DNA from: Candidatus Methanophagales archaeon ANME-1-THS
Lineage (GTDB): Archaea > Halobacteriota > Syntropharchaeia > Alkanophagales > Methanospirareceae
Direction: 5' to 3'
Assembly: GCA_004212135.1 (NCBI GenBank)
Contig: RXIE01000127.1
Coordinates: 1,565-65,564, forward strand
DNA length: 64,000 nt
Shown here: positions 10,409 through 58,289 of the stretch, piece by piece
How the letters are laid out: each line of letters begins with the position of its first letter
Numbering within the stretch: position 1 is the stretch's first letter
Position numbers and translations under genes: made by a program
Notes under the pieces: model-generated
Database searches by the model: none
What the model saw: only the letters and a program-made list of their open reading frames with translations
Told to the model about the DNA's origin: nothing

Positions 10409-11205
10409 AATCTAATTTTATAAAGCTTCCCGAATATCTCCTTCACCGCAATTACCGCTTTCGAATCATCCGGCAGCTCTATTATCGGTTTGCCAACTAA
10501 GTCATACGCTCGTATCTGCTCATCTTCGGGAACCACCCCGATAAGCGTCAGCCCACTATCCGCTATCAGTCCAGGCAACGCATTCTGAACGTCCTCATCC
10601 TCCGTAACCTTATTCACCACCAGATAGATTTGTCGGACATTTATCTGCAGCTTCTCCGCAAGAATCTTTATCGCCCTGGCGGTTTCGATACCCCGTTTCG
10701 TGGGATCGCTCACCACCAGCAGGGTATCCACATCCCGCGTGGTTCGCCGGCTGAGATGCTCCAGCCCTGCTTCGCAATCGATGAGGACGGTCGAGAACCG
10801 CGCGGATAACTTGTCAATAAAATGTCGTAGCATATCGTTAATCAGGCAATAGCAGCCTGGACCTTCTGAACGACCCATGGCAAGCAGCGAGAAACGAGGG
10901 GTATGCACGAGTATCTCATCCAGCGTGTACTCAATCAGCATATCAGTGGGCATCGTCTCGGAGAAGAAGACCTGTGAAGGCGATGCAATCTCCTCCCTCA
11001 CATCGCCTATCGTCTTCTGTATTCTCACGCCCAACGCGCTCGGGAGGCTTGTCGCCGGATCTGCATCGATTGCCAGTACTCTTCCTCGTCCCTGCTCGGT
11101 GAGCAATTTGAGTACGAGCGATGTTATAATCGTCTTTCCCGTGCCTCCTTTTCCCGCTACTGCGATGATAAAAGCCTTTTTTGCTTCTCCTGTCATTTTT
11201 ACCAC
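10387..11205 (-). CDS. cooC: CooC-type P-loop ATPase (MinD/ParA family; Ni-insertion accessory protein for CODH/ACS-type enzymes)
   Basis: AFIIAVAGKGGTGKTIITSL… deviant Walker A, 272 aa. Confidence 0.75.
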   Translation of the reverse strand: MVKMTGEAKKAFIIAVAGKGGTGKTIITSLVLKLLTEQGRGRVLAIDADPATSLPSALGVRIQKTIGDVREEIASPSQVFFSETMPTDMLIEYTLDEILVHTPRFSLLAMGRSEGPGCYCLINDMLRHFIDKLSARFSTVLIDCEAGLEHLSRRTTRDVDTLLVVSDPTKRGIETARAIKILAEKLQINVRQIYLVVNKVTEDEDVQNALPGLIADSGLTLIGVVPEDEQIRAYDLVGKPIIELPDDSKAVIAVKEIFGKLYKIRLCREELI

Positions 11206-32421: not shown

Positions 32422-33207
32422 ATGAAACGGGATATGCGAGCTATGAAGAAGGGTAGAGTAATCGCGGTAGCGGGAAAAGGCGGAACGGGGAAGACTGCGA
32501 TCGCCGCACTCCTGATACGGGAACTCCTGCGATCCCGGGCACAGGAAGAAATCTGCGTGCTCGCGGTGGATGCCGATCCGGATTCCAACCTGCCTGAGGC
32601 GCTCGGTATATCCTATGCAAAAACAGTGGGTGATATCCGAGAAGCTCTGCTGGAAGAGAAGCAGCGAGATGCAGCACTGGATATTTGGTCGCAGTTTGAG
32701 GGTAAAATTGCTGAGATTATCGTGGAAGAGGAGCACTACGACCTGCTGGTCATGGGTCGACCTGAGGGACCGGGCTGTTATTGTCCCGTCAATCATATCA
32801 TCCGCATGCTGATTGATACCCTAACGAAGAACTACGATTACACGGTCATCGATTGCGAGGCAGGGCTGGAGCATCTCAGCAGGAGAACAACGCGGGATGT
32901 GGATCTCATGCTCGTGGTACTGGATATGACTTTGAAGAGCCTGAAAACCGCGTTAAGGCTGAAACAGATCGCGGAAGAGCTCCATGTGGATGTGACGAAG
33001 CTGCTAACCATAGCGAATAAAATACCTCCCGGTGCTGAGACGATGCTCCGAGCAGAAGCGAGTCAATACGGCCTCGAGATAGAAGAGGTAATACCTTTTG
33101 ATGCCGTAATCCAGGACTATGACTTCAAAGGGATACCACTGGTCAAATTACCCGATGATGCACCCTCGGTTATCGCGGTGCGGAGAATAGCGGAGCGCAT
33201 AAAATAA
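32422..33207 (+). CDS. cooC: CooC-type P-loop ATPase (second copy)
   Basis: VIAVAGKGGTGKTAIAALL…. Paralog of 10387-11205. True start may be an internal Met. Confidence 0.75.
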   Translation: MKRDMRAMKKGRVIAVAGKGGTGKTAIAALLIRELLRSRAQEEICVLAVDADPDSNLPEALGISYAKTVGDIREALLEEKQRDAALDIWSQFEGKIAEIIVEEEHYDLLVMGRPEGPGCYCPVNHIIRMLIDTLTKNYDYTVIDCEAGLEHLSRRTTRDVDLMLVVLDMTLKSLKTALRLKQIAEELHVDVTKLLTIANKIPPGAETMLRAEASQYGLEIEEVIPFDAVIQDYDFKGIPLVKLPDDAPSVIAVRRIAERIK

Positions 33208-52860: not shown

Positions 52861-54459
52861 ATGGTGGATAGTAAGATCGTTGAGGATGAGGAACTGGTGG
52901 CTATAAAATCACGGGAAATAACACCGGTTCTCAGAGATTACCCCGCACGCACGCACCAAATTGCAGAAATGCCCGATACGGAAAATGGGTTGGGGGAAGA
53001 AGACCTGAAGAGATTGAGGTTAGATTGGTTACTTACCGATCCTCGTGCCCCTGATTTGTATTCCTGCATTCAATGCGGTGCGTGCACGGGCATTTGCCCC
53101 GCGGCATCAGTGGACAAGAGATACAATCCGAGAAGATTGGTCGAGTGCCTTATCTCGGGATGGGATATAGAAGATTATCCTTTAGAAAAGTGCTTTTCGT
53201 GCTATACCTGTAAATACGCATGCAGAGAAGGAAATTGTGTGGCTGATATAATTAAGATCTTGAAGGAGAACGAATGGAAGGGGTTAAACGTAAATCGGGA
53301 AAGATGCAGGGAGGAGTTATACTGCAAATCCCTTTACGAGCGAGGTTTATGTGTCACCTTTGATGCTCTTTCTCCCGATAAGATTCCGGAATGGGGCTCT
53401 TCATGGAAGAGGATCTACTCAAATATGCAAAAATTCAGATTGGAGCTTGGTCTTGAAGTGCATTGTCGAAAGATACCTCAACAATCGCTTGATGAGATAC
53501 GAGAGATTGTGGATAGAACAGCGAATACAAAATTCAGAAAAGAAGGTATGGTCGAGGAAGTGACGAAAAGAATTCCTGATAATAAAATTTATCTGTTCCA
53601 TAGTTGTTTCGCGGACGCACACTATCCAGGTATTACCGAGAGTATAAAATACCTATTTGACAGGCTCGGCATTGACTACCTCGATGATCCCCGGCACTCG
53701 TCGTGCACCGGCTTTGGGTATTATGTGAATGAAATACCGCTTTCCACAACGCTTGCGATAAATGCAAGGAATTTCGCTCTGGCAGAAGAGACGGGCTATC
53801 TAAATATAGCACCGATTTGTCAAACAAGTTACGGGGTGCTTACGGAGTCGGCGAGGATTTTGAGGAGCGGCATAAGAAGGCGGATAAATGAAGAGGTCTT
53901 GAGCAAAGTGAACAGGAGATACGAAGGTGAGGTCAATATAGCCCATATTTCAGAAGTACTATGGGCTCACAGAGAGAGAATAAAAGAGAAAGTAAAGCAC
54001 AGCTTTAACGGCCTAAGAGTTGCCACACACAACGGGTGCCACTATGCGAAGATGTTCAGAAAATCCGCTATGCTTAATTTATTGGACGAACTCGTATCCG
54101 TTACCGGTGCGGAACCTTTGGATTATGTGGAGCTTTGTAATCGTCTGCGTATGGGTTTTGATCATACGGTAGAACCCGAAAGAAGATACCTTACCCGGAT
54201 AATTGCCCGAAGAAAGCTTCTATCCGCTAAAGAGGCGGGTGCTGATCTCGTTCTTGTTGCCTGTCCCGGGTGCCAAATAACACTCGATAGAAATCAAGAA
54301 CGTATTGAAAAGGAAAGTGATGTGGAACTCGGTCTGCCTATCATTAACCATGCCCAGTTTATCGCCTTAGCACTGGGTGCAGACCCCTACAAAGTTGTAG
54401 GAATACAAACGCATTCAAACTCTCTCGAACGCATCTTAGAAGAGTTCGACATTCTTTAA
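52861..54459 (+). CDS. HdrD-like Fe-S oxidoreductase (HdrC-like 2x[4Fe-4S] module fused to a divergent HdrB-like cysteine-rich domain)
   Basis: CIQCGACTGICP and CFSCYTCKYAC ferredoxin motifs, then Cys-rich segments (…HSCFADAHYPG…SSCTGFG…NGCHYAK…ACPGCQ). Confidence 0.55.
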   Translation: MVDSKIVEDEELVAIKSREITPVLRDYPARTHQIAEMPDTENGLGEEDLKRLRLDWLLTDPRAPDLYSCIQCGACTGICPAASVDKRYNPRRLVECLISGWDIEDYPLEKCFSCYTCKYACREGNCVADIIKILKENEWKGLNVNRERCREELYCKSLYERGLCVTFDALSPDKIPEWGSSWKRIYSNMQKFRLELGLEVHCRKIPQQSLDEIREIVDRTANTKFRKEGMVEEVTKRIPDNKIYLFHSCFADAHYPGITESIKYLFDRLGIDYLDDPRHSSCTGFGYYVNEIPLSTTLAINARNFALAEETGYLNIAPICQTSYGVLTESARILRSGIRRRINEEVLSKVNRRYEGEVNIAHISEVLWAHRERIKEKVKHSFNGLRVATHNGCHYAKMFRKSAMLNLLDELVSVTGAEPLDYVELCNRLRMGFDHTVEPERRYLTRIIARRKLLSAKEAGADLVLVACPGCQITLDRNQERIEKESDVELGLPIINHAQFIALALGADPYKVVGIQTHSNSLERILEEFDIL

Positions 54460-54471
54460 TAAACGAGAAAG

Positions 54472-55725
54472 ATGGAGAAGAGAAGGACGATCGCGGAGAT
54501 AAATGCGAAACTAGAAAACGGCGAAGGGGTGATTATGACCGCCGAGGAGCTTTGTAATCGTCTGCGGAGTGGTGAGGATATCAGATTTGAGGATGTGGAT
54601 GTCGTCACCTCGGCGACTTGCGGCGTGATGAGTGGAACGTATGCCATTCTTTCGTTCCAAGTTGCTGAACGAGAAGCGTTCGAGCGAGCAACAACGATTT
54701 TACTGAACGGTGTGCCCGGATTCGTGGGTCCGTGCCCGAACGAGCGGCTCGGGGTTGTTGATCTACTTGTGTATGGCACGTCTCACGCGAATGAGCGCTA
54801 TGGGGGCGGGCACCTCTTCAGGGATTTGGTCGCGCAGAAAGAGATAGAAGTGGCAGTTGGAACTGTTGAAGGACGGAGTATTAAAACCACAACGTCTCTT
54901 GAGGAGATCCCTGTTGCGAGATTGTGCAGTACGAGGAACGCATTTAAGAATTACTATGCATTTGTGAATGCCCATGAGAATGCGGTGAGTTCGATATTCG
55001 GAGTGGACAGGTTTAAAGGACCCTTCAAGGAACTGACGTTCTCGGGCTGTGGTGAGTTGAATCCATTAGAAAAAGACCCCTTCAGGGAGACAATTGGCAT
55101 TGGTACGAAGATCTTGATGAACGGGGCGGTGGGTTTTGTGATCGGAGAAGGCACCCGAAGTTCACCAGAAAAGCCAAATTTGATGGGTATTGCGGATATG
55201 CACGGGATGTTTCCTGAGTTTCTCGGCGGCTTTCGGACCGCTGCTGGCCCCGAGGTCTTTTATTCCTGGGCAGTCCCTATTCCAATAGTGAACGAGCACG
55301 TGCTTGAGAACGCAGGGAAGCGGGATGAAGAGATAAGGCTTGGAGTCCTTGATATCCATAATAGGCTCCCGGTCGGTGAAATAACCTATGCGGATGTCTG
55401 GCATGACTTTTCCGTACGGTTTGATCGCTCTGCGTGTCTCGAATGTGATGAGTGTCAGGTTGCCAGCTCGTGCCCTGCCGATGCGTTTGATGGAGAGGCT
55501 AAGGAGGTGCATGAGGATTTCTGTTGCAACTGTGGCACCTGTGTGCAGGTCTGCAAGGGTGGTGCATTCAGTTGTAATCTCGGTGTTGTCCATCTTTCGG
55601 GACGAGAGATCCCTGTAACACTGCGTCAATCAGACAGGAAAAAGGCAGTAAAGCTGGCAGAAATGCTGAAGAGCAAGATTCTGGATGGTGAGTTTGTACT
55701 CGCAGAGCCTGTAAGCAGGCTTTAA
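54472..55725 (+). CDS. DUF39/COG1900-family sulfur-incorporation protein fused to a C-terminal 2x[4Fe-4S] ferredoxin domain (putative coenzyme M synthase or homocysteine-type sulfurtransferase)
   Basis: VDVVTSATCGVMSG-type DUF39 core. C-terminal CLECDECQVASSCP…CCNCGTCVQVCK. Immediately upstream of cysteate synthase and comDE. Confidence 0.55.
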   Translation: MEKRRTIAEINAKLENGEGVIMTAEELCNRLRSGEDIRFEDVDVVTSATCGVMSGTYAILSFQVAEREAFERATTILLNGVPGFVGPCPNERLGVVDLLVYGTSHANERYGGGHLFRDLVAQKEIEVAVGTVEGRSIKTTTSLEEIPVARLCSTRNAFKNYYAFVNAHENAVSSIFGVDRFKGPFKELTFSGCGELNPLEKDPFRETIGIGTKILMNGAVGFVIGEGTRSSPEKPNLMGIADMHGMFPEFLGGFRTAAGPEVFYSWAVPIPIVNEHVLENAGKRDEEIRLGVLDIHNRLPVGEITYADVWHDFSVRFDRSACLECDECQVASSCPADAFDGEAKEVHEDFCCNCGTCVQVCKGGAFSCNLGVVHLSGREIPVTLRQSDRKKAVKLAEMLKSKILDGEFVLAEPVSRL

Positions 55726-55751: not shown

Positions 55752-57098
55752 ATGAACGAGGCAAAGTATCACCTGGAATGTTTGGAATGCAGGCACGTAA
55801 TCGCCGACAGCTATACCAATACCTGCCCTGAAGGTCATGATTCGTTATTAAGAACGGTTTATAAGAGCAAGAGGATAAGGAAACGTTCGGGGCAAGGGAT
55901 GTTCAACTATATCGATTGGCTCCCGGTAGAAGCAACAGTGCCCGTAAACACGAATCCGATTACCTACAAAAGCGAGGAATTGGGAAAAGAATTAGGATTG
56001 GAAAATTTGTATGTCAGTTTCAGTGGTTACTGGCCCGAGAAGGGTGTGTTTATGAAGACCTGTACCTTCAAGGAGTTAGAAGCGCTCCCTACCCTCCTGC
56101 GTGCACACGAGCGGGCAGGTGAGAAGATCCTGGTCGTGGCATCTGCAGGAAATACCTCACGCGCATTCGCAGAGTTCTCCGCCATGACCGGTATGCCGGT
56201 GGTGACCATCGTGCCACACAGGTATACCCACCGGATGTGGACCACGACGGAAGATCACGAGAGCATCTTCCTCATCGCGGTGGATGGCGATTATTCAGAT
56301 GCAAGTGCGGCGAGCAAGGAGATAGTGAATAAACCCTTACAGGGTTTTCGGGGTCAACGGGGCGGAGCCCCGTTAATGGCGGGGTTAATAGAAGAAGGAG
56401 GGGTAAGAAATGTGGCTCGAAGGGATGGAATGGGCGTTGTGGAACTTGAAGCTGCATGGTGTATGAAGGCGTTGCCTGATTATTATGTGCAAGCGGTGGG
56501 CAGTGGCACGGGTGCGATTGCGGCATGGGAAGCGTTTATCCGGCTGATTGGTGATGGACGATTCGGTGAAAGGATGCCGAAGATTGTGATTGCACAGAAC
56601 CTCCCGTTTGCTCCCATGTTCAGTGCATGGCAGGATGGTCGAGCGGAGCTCATCGCGGCTAAAGACCTGAGCAATGCCGAAGCGGCAATAAAGGCGATGT
56701 ATGCCAATATTCTTTCTACCCGAAACCCGCCTTATAGCATCAAAGGGGGCGTCTATGAGATGCTGAGGAGTTCTCAAGGGACGATATACGGAATAACGAA
56801 CGACGAGGCGAGGGAAGCTGAGAAGCTCTTCGAGAGTGAGGAGGGGATAGATTTAGATCCCGCGGCATCAGTAGCAGTCGCTTCTTTGATGCACGCGGTT
56901 GACGAAGGCTTTGTGGAAAAAAAGGATAGAATTCTGTTGAATATCACGGGCGGCGGCTATAAGCGATTGAAGGAGGAGTGTGCACTGTACCACGTAGAAG
57001 CGCGAATGGAACTGCACTCACATGCGGTGGGTCAATTACCGGTCGATGAACTTGAAAGAGAGCTAAAGGAGTTCGTTACGGGTTTATACGTAGGGTAA
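55752..57098 (+). CDS. Cysteate synthase (threonine-synthase-like, PLP-dependent; coenzyme M biosynthesis from phosphoserine)
   Basis: N-terminal Zn-ribbon (CLECRHV…CPEGH) and a threonine-synthase fold (…VVASAGNTSRAF…GSGTGAIAAW…). Contains the 14-aa insert NKPLQGFRGQRGGA. Confidence 0.65.
   Translation: MNEAKYHLECLECRHVIADSYTNTCPEGHDSLLRTVYKSKRIRKRSGQGMFNYIDWLPVEATVPVNTNPITYKSEELGKELGLENLYVSFSGYWPEKGVFMKTCTFKELEALPTLLRAHERAGEKILVVASAGNTSRAFAEFSAMTGMPVVTIVPHRYTHRMWTTTEDHESIFLIAVDGDYSDASAASKEIVNKPLQGFRGQRGGAPLMAGLIEEGGVRNVARRDGMGVVELEAAWCMKALPDYYVQAVGSGTGAIAAWEAFIRLIGDGRFGERMPKIVIAQNLPFAPMFSAWQDGRAELIAAKDLSNAEAAIKAMYANILSTRNPPYSIKGGVYEMLRSSQGTIYGITNDEAREAEKLFESEEGIDLDPAASVAVASLMHAVDEGFVEKKDRILLNITGGGYKRLKEECALYHVEARMELHSHAVGQLPVDELERELKEFVTGLYVG
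56328..56369. repeat. 42-bp in-frame repeat copy 1 (aataaacccttacagggttttcggggtcaacggggcggagcc) inside cysteate synthase
   Basis: Identical 42-mer at 57876-57917 in comDE. Encodes NKPLQGFRGQRGGA in both. Contains a GGGGC-GGA-GCCCC hairpin. Confidence 0.7.
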
Positions 57099-57116
57099 AC
57101 ATGAGCTGAGGATACC

Positions 57117-58289
57117 ATGTATCAAACCGAGCGGGACGTGTTAGAACTCATAAAGAGAAATAACATAGAGGTTGTCTCAACGCTCCCGTGCGAGAAACTA
57201 AGTGCTCTGTTGCGGCTTGTCGCGGACGAACGAGCATTTTGTCATGTGGGTTTGAACCGTGAGGAGAATGGCGTTGGTATCTCCGCAGGTGTTTCGCTCG
57301 CGGGGGGAAGACCGCTCATGATCATCCAGAGCACGGGTTTAGGGAATTCACTCACTGCTCTGATGTCGCTCACCGTTACGTATGGGCTGCCGTTACCCAT
57401 CATCGCGAGCTGGCGTGGCGTTTACAAGGAGCAGATAGAGGCGCAGGTCCCGTTTGGAAAGGCGCTGCCCGGCGTTTTAGATGCATTGGGGCTGAACTAC
57501 ACGCTCATCGAGGACTCCTCACAAATCGGGTTAGTAGACGATGCTATCCAGGACGCCTTTGCTCATGAAAGACCGCATATAGCACTCATCTCGCCGAGAA
57601 CATGGGGAAGCGATGAGGTGAGTAAAGAAAACACCGGTCCGCACCGGAAGAGATCTTTCACCGTGACGTATGAAGGAGAATATCAGGAGCCGGAGATGCG
57701 AAGATACGATGCGATACGGATAATCACCGAATATCTGGATGAAGAAGCCGTGATTGCGAACATCGGTGTCCCAAGCAAGGAACTGTATGCCGCCCAAGAC
57801 CGCGCTTTAAATTTTTACATGCTCGGGAGTCTGGGTCAAGCGTCCTCTATTGGATTGGGCGTCGCATTGAAGACAAATAAACCCTTACAGGGTTTTCGGG
57901 GTCAACGGGGCGGAGCCTTGTTGAGAGAGACGGTAGTACTCGATGGGGATGGAAGCCTGCTGATGAGCGATATCTTGCCGGTGGTAGGGGAGCAGAAGCC
58001 GAAGAATCTTTCTATCATTTGCCTGGATAATGGCACATGGGGGAGCACCGGAGATCAGCCGGTAGCTTTTGCAGGAGATATCGCGCTGATGGCGATCGGT
58101 GCAGGCATGGAGAATACGATGAAGATATACAGGGAAGAAGAGCTGCGGCACGCCTTAGAAGGGTTATACGAGAAGGCGGGTCCGAGATTTCTCCAGGTCG
58201 TGATTAAACCAGGCAATGCACCCATACGGAACATACCTTTGAGCGCATCGCAGATAAAGCGACGATTCATGGCTGCGCTGCTTCCATAA
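57117..58289 (+). CDS. comDE: Sulfopyruvate decarboxylase, fused ComD-ComE (TPP-dependent)
   Basis: ComD-like N-half, then ComE-like C-half with …GSLGQASSIGLGVAL…VVLDGDGSLLM (TPP-binding GDG). Carries the same 14-aa insert exactly at the GLALx–VVLDGDG junction. Confidence 0.8.
   Translation: MYQTERDVLELIKRNNIEVVSTLPCEKLSALLRLVADERAFCHVGLNREENGVGISAGVSLAGGRPLMIIQSTGLGNSLTALMSLTVTYGLPLPIIASWRGVYKEQIEAQVPFGKALPGVLDALGLNYTLIEDSSQIGLVDDAIQDAFAHERPHIALISPRTWGSDEVSKENTGPHRKRSFTVTYEGEYQEPEMRRYDAIRIITEYLDEEAVIANIGVPSKELYAAQDRALNFYMLGSLGQASSIGLGVALKTNKPLQGFRGQRGGALLRETVVLDGDGSLLMSDILPVVGEQKPKNLSIICLDNGTWGSTGDQPVAFAGDIALMAIGAGMENTMKIYREEELRHALEGLYEKAGPRFLQVVIKPGNAPIRNIPLSASQIKRRFMAALLP
57876..57917. 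repeat. 42-bp in-frame repeat copy 2 inside comDE
   Basis: Identical to 56328-56369, in the same codon phase. Confidence 0.7.

Follow-up and report, generated by a model that had tools for sequence, protein, structure and literature searches.

A probable seamlessly inserting 45-nt hairpin repeat within the adjacent cysteate synthase and ComDE genes of an ANME-1 archaeon

Results

Two adjacent genes share a short insert

The window analysed here is a stretch of 64,000 nt from Candidatus Methanophagales archaeon ANME-1-THS. By homology, two adjacent genes encode a PLP-dependent cysteate synthase and a TPP-dependent sulfopyruvate decarboxylase, ComDE; the two hosts are unrelated, as the original prediction had held. 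A 42-mer occurred exactly twice in this 64-kb window (56328–56369 and 57876–57917). Exact search and translation confirmed that it had an identical codon phase in the two genes and gave the product NKPLQGFRGQRGGA in both; no third copy was found in the window when up to 3 mismatches were allowed, and none is expected by chance. The shared stretch is thus real, but its proposed length of 42 bp had to be revised: the true inserted unit is 45 nt, is shifted relative to the 42-mer, and is 43/45 identical between the copies. The leading AA of the 42-mer is part of a host Lys codon and lies outside the unit, which extends 5 nt past the 42-mer at the 3′ end. The copies are 43/45 identical because these 5 nt differ (CCGTT in copy 1 and TTGTT in copy 2, i.e. 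CC to TT at unit positions 41–42). The features are as follows.

55752–57098, + strand: host gene 1, cysteate synthase (PLP enzyme), assigned by homology
56330–56374, + strand: element copy 1, in cysteate synthase, splitting a Lys codon (AA^A)
56331–56347, + strand: hairpin 1 of copy 1, AAACCCT-TAC-AGGGTTT, 7-bp stem and 3-nt loop (predicted fold)
56348–56355, + strand: linker of copy 1, TCGGGGTC, 8 nt
56356–56374, + strand: hairpin 2 of copy 1, AACGGGGC-GGA-GCCCCGTT, 8-bp stem and 3-nt loop (predicted fold)
56375–56379, + strand: target-side bases AATGG directly 3′ of copy 1, fitting the A-N-T-N-G preference described below
57117–58289, + strand: host gene 2, sulfopyruvate decarboxylase ComDE (TPP enzyme), assigned by homology
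57878–57922, + strand: element copy 2, in ComDE, splitting a Lys codon (AA^G)
57879–57895, + strand: hairpin 1 of copy 2 (predicted fold)
57904–57922, + strand: hairpin 2 of copy 2, AACGGGGC-GGA-GCCTTGTT (predicted fold)

Copy 1 is read as (N)KPLQGFRGQRGGAP(L) and copy 2 as (N)KPLQGFRGQRGGAL(L). Folding of the element predicted two hairpins; the GC hairpin noticed originally was recovered, and AAACCCT-TAC-AGGGTTT was added to it. For either strand, both were predicted to form in RNA and in single-stranded DNA, with fold energies of −20 kcal/mol for copy 1 and −15 kcal/mol for copy 2. A structured RNA embedded in the mRNAs, one of the original suggestions, may therefore account for the hairpins no less than a DNA structure may, although no Rfam family and no archaeal splicing motif fitted the element. 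A listing of the pairs in hairpin 2 of copy 2 showed that the two altered bases gave G.T (G.U) pairs on the + strand. A second same-length patch in the window, of 18 nt, was shared by adjacent genes of the same operon, at 54129 and 54546.

Fold compatibility of the insert positions was assessed for the two window enzymes. In the AlphaFold2 model of cysteate synthase (mean pLDDT 91.7) the insert made up residues 193–208, in a loop between helix 181–193 and strand 212–214, with pLDDT below 50 at residues 201–205. In that of ComDE (mean pLDDT 86.4) it made up residues 256–271, between helix 242–253 and strand 272–277 and directly before the GDG motif, with pLDDT below 50 at residues 256–267. The models place both inserts in low-confidence helix-to-strand loops, where they would be compatible with the host fold.

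The segment was missing in 118 of 120 cysteate synthase orthologues and in 119 of 120 ComDE orthologues (that is, in all the others), in agreement with the earlier view that it is an insertion and not ancestral sequence. Orthologues thus mostly lacked the segment as predicted, but cysteate synthase carriers did exist, namely the query's own database record (P0001) and a related MAG (P0002); they hold the same element at the same site and not a native segment. A further genome (L065) had an enlarged insert of 108 nt at the same cysteate synthase site, with the frame kept.

Filled and empty sites differ by exactly 45 nt

Empty sites were compared with filled ones at the DNA level for both genes (^ marks a junction). 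The cysteate synthase empty site was GTGAA^AATAGGG (L064), and the filled sites were GTGAA[45 nt]AATGGCG in the window and GCGAA[45 nt]AATAGGG in L001. The ComDE site, empty in the closest relative (L065), was AAGACAAA^GAGAGAGACGG, and in the window it was AAGACAAA[45 nt]GAGAGAGACGG. The difference was exactly 45 nt with zero duplicated target bases in each of these two comparisons, i.e. no target-site duplication was present in either. Models with a TA-type or AA-type target duplication were ruled out by a hand check against the empty sites. The unit had no terminal inverted repeats, its 5′ end TAAACCCT mismatching AACGGGGC, the reverse complement of its 3′ end.

A preference was detected on the downstream side of 41 independent sites, with A at +1 in 35, T at +3 in 26 and G at +5 in 28 of them, indicating insertion directly 5′ of an A-N-T-N-G-like motif which is degenerate and one-sided. 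The motif bases pre-existed in the cysteate synthase empty site of L064; the ComDE target, GAGAG, matched at +5 only. The ComDE junctions showed AA microhomology at the left and none at the right.

The unit belongs to a dispersed family

The family unit was TAAACCCTTACAGGGTTT-TCGGGGTC-AACGGGGC-NNN-GCCCCGTT, with two perfect hairpins; its 45 nt comprised one T, hairpin 1 (AAACCCT-TAC-AGGGTTT), the 8-nt linker and hairpin 2 (AACGGGGC-NNN-GCCCCGTT). The core was present at 62 genome loci (one of which, L044, was a chance match) and at more than 120 metagenome loci, and at least 15 archaeal assemblies and over 120 metagenome contigs contained the unit between unrelated flanks. G60ANME1, from a thermophilic ANME-1 enrichment, is one of the carriers (locus L006). 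A search of related genomes therefore found the same unit but did not confine it to two neighbouring genes. Across all genome and metagenome loci identity began at the T and stopped at GTT, and the flanks of the 45-nt unit were unrelated at more than 40 independent loci. A multi-copy dispersed family with sharp ends and a clean 45-nt difference between filled and empty sites supports the suggestion, among those made originally, of a miniature in-frame insertion element.

The loop of hairpin 2 differed among copies (GGA, GAA, AGA or TGA), and in relatives the linker was the place where extra hairpin modules nested. Composite and nested arrays occurred, the basic unit being two unlike hairpins in direct order; the composite insert of L065 and other composite copies broke after TTTTCGGG. 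Some insertions were common to orthologous genes across MAGs. At certain loci one left flank was joined via the element to differing right flanks, and vice versa. Recombination at the element is a weaker explanation of this flank swapping, because IS-related or repeated genes form the flanks and assemblers can join contigs through an exact repeat of 45 nt.

Viral contigs were scanned three times, with different portions of the element and of a sibling, and gave zero matches, so there was no sign of a viral carrier. A tRNA scan of 60 loci revealed no copy inside a tRNA gene, the region matched no Rfam family even at E values up to 10, and a protein database search with a 45-aa concatenate of the encoded peptide returned no candidates. 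A Pfam scan of 137 ORFs lying up to 2 kb from copies revealed neither a transposase nor a RAYT-like gene in the best 25 of 191 families; the commonest families there were those of ordinary core genes. Among the loci collected there was no full-length parent with the ends of the element (solitary end hairpins bracketing genes). Searches of the literature returned nothing on the element sequence or on ANME-1 with MITE, and nothing relevant on repeats or in-frame insertions of ANME-1.

Internal copies follow one reading frame

About one third of the independent sites fell within real genes. Twelve internal sites were located in 11 Pfam-verified genes of unrelated families: chorismate synthase, TruA, a ThiI-like protein, AsnB/diphthamide synthase, Tyr/Trp-tRNA synthetase, YjeF, an FeS/MvhD protein, a Y-family polymerase (two copies), a MiaB-like protein (L040), cysteate synthase and ComDE. 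Internal copies were in sense orientation throughout, and none had an in-frame stop. Eleven of the 12 were in phase 2 and encoded KPLQGFRGQRGGAPL; under a simple null model this frame accounts for just 0.41 of open site/frame combinations. The exception, the copy in the MiaB-like protein, was in phase 0, and there a change of T1 to A abolished the TAA of the element.

Many copies lay at gene 3′ ends or between genes. Those forming C-terminal tails represented all three open frames, antisense and other-frame copies included, and intergenic copies occurred in both orientations (10 versus 6); the TGA loop variant was intergenic. Since the tails use all open frames and the intergenic copies both orientations, selection on the peptide, and not the mechanism of insertion, would explain the frame rule. 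From the constraints on frame, length and stops in the sequence, we infer that the insert is translated in the host protein.

Both stems covary and the element is near-invariant

Compensatory pairs were found in both stems among 27 sibling variants, a set prefiltered by RNA folding, which favours G.T over A.C mispairs. Pair 5 of hairpin 1 alternated between A-T and G-C, and in hairpin 2 the loop-closing and outer pairs covaried. The pairs were counted directly, because a MAFFT alignment of the variants left the 3′ arm out of register.

The cysteate synthase insert showed 0/48 nt differences versus 19.7% in the host gene, and the element as a whole was near-invariant across lineages with ~20% host-gene divergence. 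The former comparison exceeds what is expected of a decaying selfish insert; function, homogenisation or repeated re-insertion must therefore act. At the cysteate synthase site one filled genome has a sister with an empty site, and the pattern of presence among relatives requires two or more events at this single position. Near-invariance, together with the evidence for re-insertion at the same site or seamless loss, suggests that the element is active or maintained and not a fossil.

Discussion

Both stretches in the window are probably copies of a small, non-autonomous, seamlessly inserting hairpin repeat of ANME-1 (Methanophagales) that resembles the RPE and REP elements of bacteria. Such a repeat would insert without a fixed orientation or codon phase. 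Copies landing in a stop-free sense frame within surface loops would be tolerated and translated, and other internal insertions would be purged by selection. Tolerance would follow from a length of 45 nt, a multiple of three, and from one open sense frame, which encodes the Gly/Arg/Gln/Pro-rich peptide KPLQGFRGQRGGAPL. The cysteate synthase copy may be older, or recurrent; the ComDE copy would be recent and confined to ANME-1-THS, and it may have hopped locally from the copy 1.5 kb upstream. Mobilisation would most likely depend on an enzyme supplied in trans, which would recognise the hairpins in single-stranded DNA and carry out seamless cutting and joining; an HUH/Y1 enzyme of the IS200/IS605 or RAYT kind is a candidate by analogy.

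Several other origins were weighed against such a repeat. Short-patch copying by gene conversion or template switching, in which the cysteate synthase copy that lies 1.5 kb upstream served as template for the ComDE copy, would be in keeping with the sole two copies within 64 kb being 43/45 identical with the same GGA loop, with the 18-nt patch copied between adjacent genes of the same operon (54129 and 54546), and with the AA microhomology at the left junction. Against it, the right junction has no microhomology, and the block starts and stops at the family unit ends (T ... GTT), like the copies at over 40 unrelated sites, ends which microhomology-guided copying is unlikely to respect. Other donor copies may also lie elsewhere in the ANME-1-THS genome, beyond these 64 kb. 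We regard such copying as quite unlikely, and a gene-conversion tract between the two genes, one of the explanations first offered, gains no support: the flanks share nothing, and the block ends are those of the unit at dozens of unrelated loci. The suspicion of an assembly artefact was also dispelled. The window does derive from a metagenome-assembled genome, assemblers can be misled by short exact repeats, and the same operon contains another odd shared patch. Nevertheless, three independent assemblies had the cysteate synthase insertion at one and the same nucleotide, other insertions were shared by orthologous genes across MAGs, and those in the window had continuous host sequence on both sides, a kept frame, exact family ends and two base differences from each other. 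Mis-assembly or a binning error as the source of the repeat in one or both genes is therefore extremely unlikely.

Removal of the 45 nt from the mRNA, as an archaeal intron or by other RNA excision, would give proteins made without the insert. The sense orientation of all internal copies, the stable predicted RNA hairpins, a nucleotide conservation above that of the host gene and the G-U pairing preserved on the sense strand by the two altered bases of the ComDE copy all point in this direction. However, no bulge-helix-bulge geometry was seen at either junction with shifts from −3 to +3. At the true junctions 2/4 (cysteate synthase) and 1/4 (ComDE) central pairs formed, and the shifts added no flanked central helix; the flanks could not supply the exon half of the motif, because they differ at every site. 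Neither tRNA genes nor Rfam gave a match. Introns are free of rules on length, stops and phase, yet the internal copies measured 45 or 108 nt and were open, 11 of the 12 sharing one frame; the copy in the exceptional frame required a stop-killing mutation, and antisense and other-frame copies formed read-through C-terminal tails. An intervening sequence is thus very unlikely.

The element might instead be kept for a benefit to the host, as an RGG-like flexible linker or as a site in DNA or RNA on which a host protein acts (in recombination, in termination or, as with some REPs, in mRNA stabilisation by a hairpin). Near-invariance across lineages ~20% apart in host genes, covariation in both stems, the frequent position at gene 3′ ends or between genes, and left and right flanks swapped via the element would fit this. 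But only some close relatives carry the element, and it is missing from most orthologues, so no host gene requires it; occupation of all frames, both orientations and non-coding DNA argues against a peptide function; and the swapped-flank loci are IS-related or repeated genes, where a 45-nt exact repeat could create assembly joins. Host benefit therefore appears unlikely. A bolder form of the preferred reading is conceivable but doubtful: the repeat would represent a new class of archaeal mobile DNA, the smallest known seamless inserter, with two unlike terminal hairpins and a sequence evolved toward a harmless linker in essential genes. It would involve a putative unlinked enzyme, and re-insertion at, or precise excision from, the identical nucleotide; the cysteate synthase site needs two or more events of this kind, and its insert is undiverged versus 20% in the host gene. 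Bolder still, and barely conceivable, would be removal from the RNA by a route other than bulge-helix-bulge splicing.

Among known systems, the Rickettsia palindromic elements (RPE-1 to RPE-8 and later families) occupy many unrelated housekeeping genes, where they keep the frame and are read through (PMC10969869). Like them, the ANME-1 element is a multi-copy palindromic repeat with an in-frame peptide at fold-compatible positions and with intergenic copies as well (PMC10969869). The likeness is one of description: RPEs are bacterial and ~100–150 bp long, whereas the ANME-1 element is archaeal, 45 nt long, and made of two different short hairpins instead of a single long palindrome, and for it seamless insertion and a one-sided A-N-T-N-G preference were demonstrated.

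Intragenic REPs are sometimes translated, adding 20–30 residues, sometimes twice per gene (Di Nocera et al. 2013, PMC3733652). REPs and REPINs share with the ANME-1 element short GC-rich hairpins, a similar size, composite or nested arrays, location at gene 3′ ends and sometimes within genes; two copies in one gene are found here in the Y-family polymerase. Unlike them, the main ANME-1 family has no GTAG or CGTC tag, its unit ending in TAAACCC... and ...CCCCGTT (one sibling type has GTAG within a stem, where it is not conserved); its basic unit is two different hairpins in direct order and not an inverted REPIN doublet, and it has an archaeal host, has a higher intragenic share (~1/3), and showed no RAYT gene in the best 25 of 191 neighbouring families.

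As in IS200/IS605 elements and their miniature derivatives (PATEs), there is no target-site duplication, there are no terminal inverted repeats and a hairpin lies at each end; insertion beside a short motif may be a further point in common with IS200/IS605, and seamless loss is plausible, given the empty cysteate synthase site in a genome whose sister is filled. In contrast to IS200/IS605, the motif is degenerate and the two hairpins differ from one another, while no TnpA gene was found among the commonest neighbouring families and no full-length parent among the loci collected; the hairpins reach the unit ends, leaving no space for the guide tetranucleotide of IS608. MITEs, including the archaeal ones of Sulfolobus and haloarchaea, are likewise small, non-autonomous, multi-copy, sometimes nested and variably present among close relatives, but the ANME-1 element is far shorter than typical MITEs and differs from MITEs in the strict sense in having neither terminal inverted repeats nor a target-site duplication. 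Archaeal bulge-helix-bulge introns are known from tRNA and rRNA genes and from the cbf5 pre-mRNA of Crenarchaeota. They too are short, structured, seamless in the host sequence and sense inside genes, whereas the ANME-1 element has no such motif and no copies in tRNA genes, and is constrained in length, phase and stops like coding sequence.

Selfish hairpin repeats serving as translated loops in essential genes, previously described from a few bacteria, would now extend to Archaea, in an ANME-1 form that is unusually small and clean. The annotation and alignment of ANME-1 proteins are affected, since many of these proteins contain otherwise unexplained inserts of 15 residues such as KPLQGFRGQRGGAPL. 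The sites of the element provide a natural map of insertion-tolerant enzyme loops, and they raise the mechanistic question of which enzyme would cut at T^AAACCC and GTT^A.

Two 45-nt insertions in adjacent genes

The original prediction placed an identical 42-mer, in one codon phase, in the genes for cysteate synthase and ComDE. Positions and phase were verified: exact copies were found at 56328–56369 and 57876–57917 in neighbouring plus-strand genes, against a chance expectation of none, and the whole window contained only these two, both in a search allowing up to 3 mismatches and by short-word BLAST and repeat search.

Host genes and inserted blocks (blocks delimited from filled versus empty site DNA)
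55752–57098, + strand: cysteate synthase (PF00291)
56330–56374, + strand: inserted 45-nt block, copy 1
57117–58289, + strand: ComDE, fused sulfopyruvate decarboxylase (PF02776 and PF02775)
57878–57922, + strand: inserted 45-nt block, copy 2

Each protein was compared with 120 orthologues. The segment was seen in two cysteate synthases, the query's own record (P0001) and a 79% identical protein (P0002) of MAG Kmv05, whose DNA is stretch L001 (L numbers are DNA stretches from other assemblies), and in no ComDE except the query itself; its absence elsewhere agreed with the proposed insert. The empty cysteate synthase site of MAG Yes46-13 (L064) reads GTGAA^AATAGGG, and the filled sites read GTGAA[45 nt]AATGGCG in the window and GCGAA[45 nt]AATAGGG in L001. 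For ComDE, the closest relative (L065) has AAGACAAA^GAGAGAGACGG and the window AAGACAAA[45 nt]GAGAGAGACGG. From the empty-site DNA of these relatives, both window insertions are blocks of exactly 45 nt, so that the shared stretch is indeed an insert but its length is 45 nt and not 42. Each block interrupts a lysine codon after the second base, and no target bases were duplicated at either site. The two blocks are identical at 43 of 45 positions, with 3′ ends CCGTT (copy 1) and TTGTT (copy 2).

Other repeats were also present in the window. An exact 21-nt sequence, GGAGCTTTGTAATCGTCTGCG, occurs at 54129–54149 in a CCG-domain (HdrB-like) gene and at 54546–54566 in the adjoining HcyBio gene. The CCG-domain gene has DYVEKGLCCGMGFDH in L001 and L064 and DYVELCNRLRMGFDH in the window; this 18-nt patch of the same length displaces conserved CCG cysteines and appears to be a copy from the adjoining gene, 417 nt downstream. 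It would be either a short-patch templated mutation or a MAG consensus error. A 73-nt inverted repeat (10712–10784 and 32846–32918, 89% complementary, 22 kb apart) lies near a second repeat pair (11132–11181 and 32446–32495), and both pairs probably mark oppositely oriented paralogous genes.

A dispersed family of double hairpins

A search for the 42-mer in other genomes had also been suggested, and it yielded a dispersed, multi-copy unit: a 21-nt core of the block, scanned against a collection of species-representative genomes, matched 62 stretches. Many copies apiece were found in Methanophagales Kmv05, “archaeon Yes46-13” and a MAG labelled Nitrosotalea, and one or a few in G60ANME1, GoMg1, FWG147, SB_Co_68, AUK002, AUK217, WYZ-LMO13, LH_S14, three “Methanosarcinales” MAGs and one “Halobacteria” MAG. 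A match in an Akkermansiaceae genome was set aside as chance. In all real genome copies, similarity ran from the same T to the same GTT between unrelated flanks, and these ends were exactly those found by comparing filled with empty sites. When metagenomes were scanned with another portion of the unit, at least 120 contigs matched.

The MAG “Nitrosotalea sp. BE2011_44_29” contained ~20 copies, on DYFG01 contigs (L004, L008–L010, L015, L019, L021, L022, L025, L030, L031, L033, L035, L036, L040, L054, L055, L060 and L062). Their flanks, where comparable, were ~97% identical to the Methanophagales-like MAG Yes46-13, and it looks as if these contigs were either mislabelled as Nitrosotalea or wrongly binned.

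The unit was predicted to fold into two perfect hairpins, AAACCCT-TAC-AGGGTTT and AACGGGGC-NNN-GCCCCGTT, joined by the linker TCGGGGTC; the GC hairpin first noticed was thus recovered, together with a further one. Among copies only the second loop varies (GGA, GAA, AGA and once TGA). Across 27 variants both stems were maintained by compensatory changes: pair 5 of hairpin 1 was A-T in 15, G-C in 9 and G.T in 3, the loop-closing pair of hairpin 2 was C-G in 24 and T-A in 3, and its outer pairs included all four Watson-Crick types.

The same genomes also had sibling families, as well as arrays in which units are nested or composite. The cysteate synthase gene of L065 has an enlarged, in-frame 108-nt insert (2151–2258) at the same site. 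This insert has the same hairpins 1 and 2, contains three or four more hairpin modules that are nested after TTTTCGGG, and encodes NKPLQGFRVSPSWACGGMGRAHDGRSPRCGGTGGAPL. In L055:1–1640, two inverted composite copies (~28–150 and 1500–1620), each within TTAGGATTT-type short repeats, flank a small HicA/HicB-like gene pair (892–1318), which may be a mobile cassette. At several loci, intergenic copies lay inside short TTGGGATTT- or TTAGGATTT-like repeat arrays on both sides, e.g. ...ttgggatttacttgggatttggtag[unit]atttgacattgggattt..., which suggests a larger composite repeat.

Copies embedded in repeat arrays
L012:700–900
L042:1500–1700
L056:1150–1350
L058:450–700
L002:1–250
L016:4150–4400

In one group (L094, L104 and L140) and in another (L099, L114 and L139), the first 22–24 nt of the unit were joined directly to the right flank, with the junction a few bases into that flank; hairpin 2 was apparently lost through a small deletion.

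Insertion sites, host genes and reading frame

At 41 independent sites of the genome set, no bases were conserved on the 5′ side, and the 3′ side showed a preference for A at +1 (35/41), T at +3 (26/41) and G at +5 (28/41). The preferred bases were already there in the empty cysteate synthase site, and so reflect target preference and not the element; the ComDE site (GAGAG) agreed at +5 only. About one third of the sites lay within long ORFs, a few at ORF ends and the remainder between genes. The host ORFs were genuine and unrelated by Pfam.

Host genes identified by Pfam
chorismate synthase
TruA
ThiI-like protein
asparagine/diphthamide synthase fusion
Tyr/Trp-tRNA synthetase
Y-family DNA polymerase (with two copies of the unit)
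YjeF NAD(P)HX repair enzyme
FeS/MvhD protein
MiaB-like enzyme

Eleven of the 12 Pfam-verified internal sites had the unit in sense orientation and phase xxT AAA CCC ..., giving the peptide KPLQGFRGQRGGAPL. Of the unit's six possible frames, three contain no stop, and this phase made up 0.41 of the open site/frame combinations when flank-dependent stops were allowed for, so that 11/12 in one frame was unlikely by chance. The exception, located in the TRAM domain of a MiaB-like protein (L040), used phase 0, and this element has T1 changed to A, converting its own TAA to AAA. C-terminal tails at gene 3′ ends used all three open frames (...KPLQGFRGQRGGAPL, ...NPYRVFGVNGAEPRY and, antisense, ...TGLRPVDPENPVRV, each followed by a stop), and copies between co-directional genes were found in both orientations (10 vs 6). 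We conclude that insertion is independent of strand and phase, and that internal copies are filtered by selection on the encoded peptide. In-frame stops never occurred in internal copies, the TGA loop variant was intergenic and the 108-nt insert of L065 is in frame, all of which fit translation of the insert. AlphaFold2 models of the window enzymes had high overall confidence (mean pLDDT 91.7 for cysteate synthase and 86.4 for ComDE) and showed both inserts as a low-confidence loop from a helix to the next strand.

History of the two copies

The cysteate synthase genes of the window and L001 differed at 19.7% of nucleotides (36% at third codon positions), and the insert codons had no differences in 48 nt (P ~1e-4 if the average rate of the gene applied). 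Elsewhere, at further orthologous filled sites, divergence was 0.9% in the element and 6.6% in the flanks, although 21 of the element's 45 positions were set by the search pattern. Three neighbouring genes gave the topology ((window, L065), (L001, L064)), in which empty L064 is the sister of filled L001. With nearly all other orthologues also empty, no fewer than two events are required at this site: the unit may have been gained and then seamlessly lost, or inserted twice at one nucleotide; ongoing homogenisation against other copies could contribute. The ComDE copy, specific to ANME-1-THS, is therefore recent, and may plausibly stem from a local hop of the copy in cysteate synthase, at a distance of 1.5 kb. 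The NMT1-family gene 3′ of ComDE was ~50% diverged in L064 vs 11–24% among the window, L001 and L065; L064 seems to have a different paralogue or a replacement in an otherwise syntenic operon.

Alternative origins and mobilisation

Of the explanations first listed, a miniature in-frame insertion element was supported by dispersed copies, sharp ends and the clean 45-nt difference between empty and filled sites. Exchange private to the two genes did not hold, the unit being dispersed in many genomes, nor did an assembly artefact, the window copies being insertions with exact family ends. No Rfam family was matched and no copies lay inside tRNA genes. An archaeal splicing-endonuclease intron is unlikely: the bulge-helix-bulge geometry that this enzyme needs forms at neither window junction, and is impossible in general because flanks differ from site to site.

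Among the metagenome loci, a single left flank continued across the element into four or more different right flanks, and different left flanks also shared right flanks. The genes concerned were a DUF1670 pair whose stop and start codons overlap in ATGA (the element lies precisely at AC^ATGA), an IS1-type transposase, an HTH transposase-like N-terminus and a RadC-like gene. Short-read assemblers can be misled by a 45-nt exact repeat and the flanks themselves are repeated or mobile, so these joins were not counted as evidence of recombination at the element. The DUF1670 protein occurs as two ORFs (Pfam profile positions 1–121 and 123–220) in L111:2427–3400, and likewise in L077, L109, L112 and others; the element adds 15 residues to the first ORF and keeps the overlap.

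Among 137 ORFs lying no more than 2 kb from a copy, the commonest Pfam families were those of ordinary core genes and included no transposase, and no full-length parent bracketed by both hairpins was seen in the loci examined; the element is therefore probably non-autonomous. No viral contigs matched the element or a sibling. The seamless insertion, the hairpin at each end, the lack of inverted termini and the short target motif on one side only would best suit an HUH/Y1 enzyme (IS200/IS605 or RAYT type) that recognises hairpins in single strands, although several features that define those families were absent or not in evidence.

The closest analogues are bacterial. Rickettsia palindromic elements occur in-frame in many unrelated genes (review PMC10969869), and intragenic translated REPs have been described for several bacteria, where repair genes are frequent hosts and a gene sometimes has two (PMC3733652). 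Unlike these, the ANME-1 family is archaeal, shorter (45 nt) and made of two unlike hairpins; it has no GTAG/CGTC tags, inserts seamlessly beside a short motif, and inside genes is nearly restricted to one coding frame. Neither this sequence nor elements of this kind in ANME-1 were described in the literature searched. The two window stretches are insertions of a previously undescribed, widespread ANME-1 hairpin repeat, probably tolerated as a translated loop.
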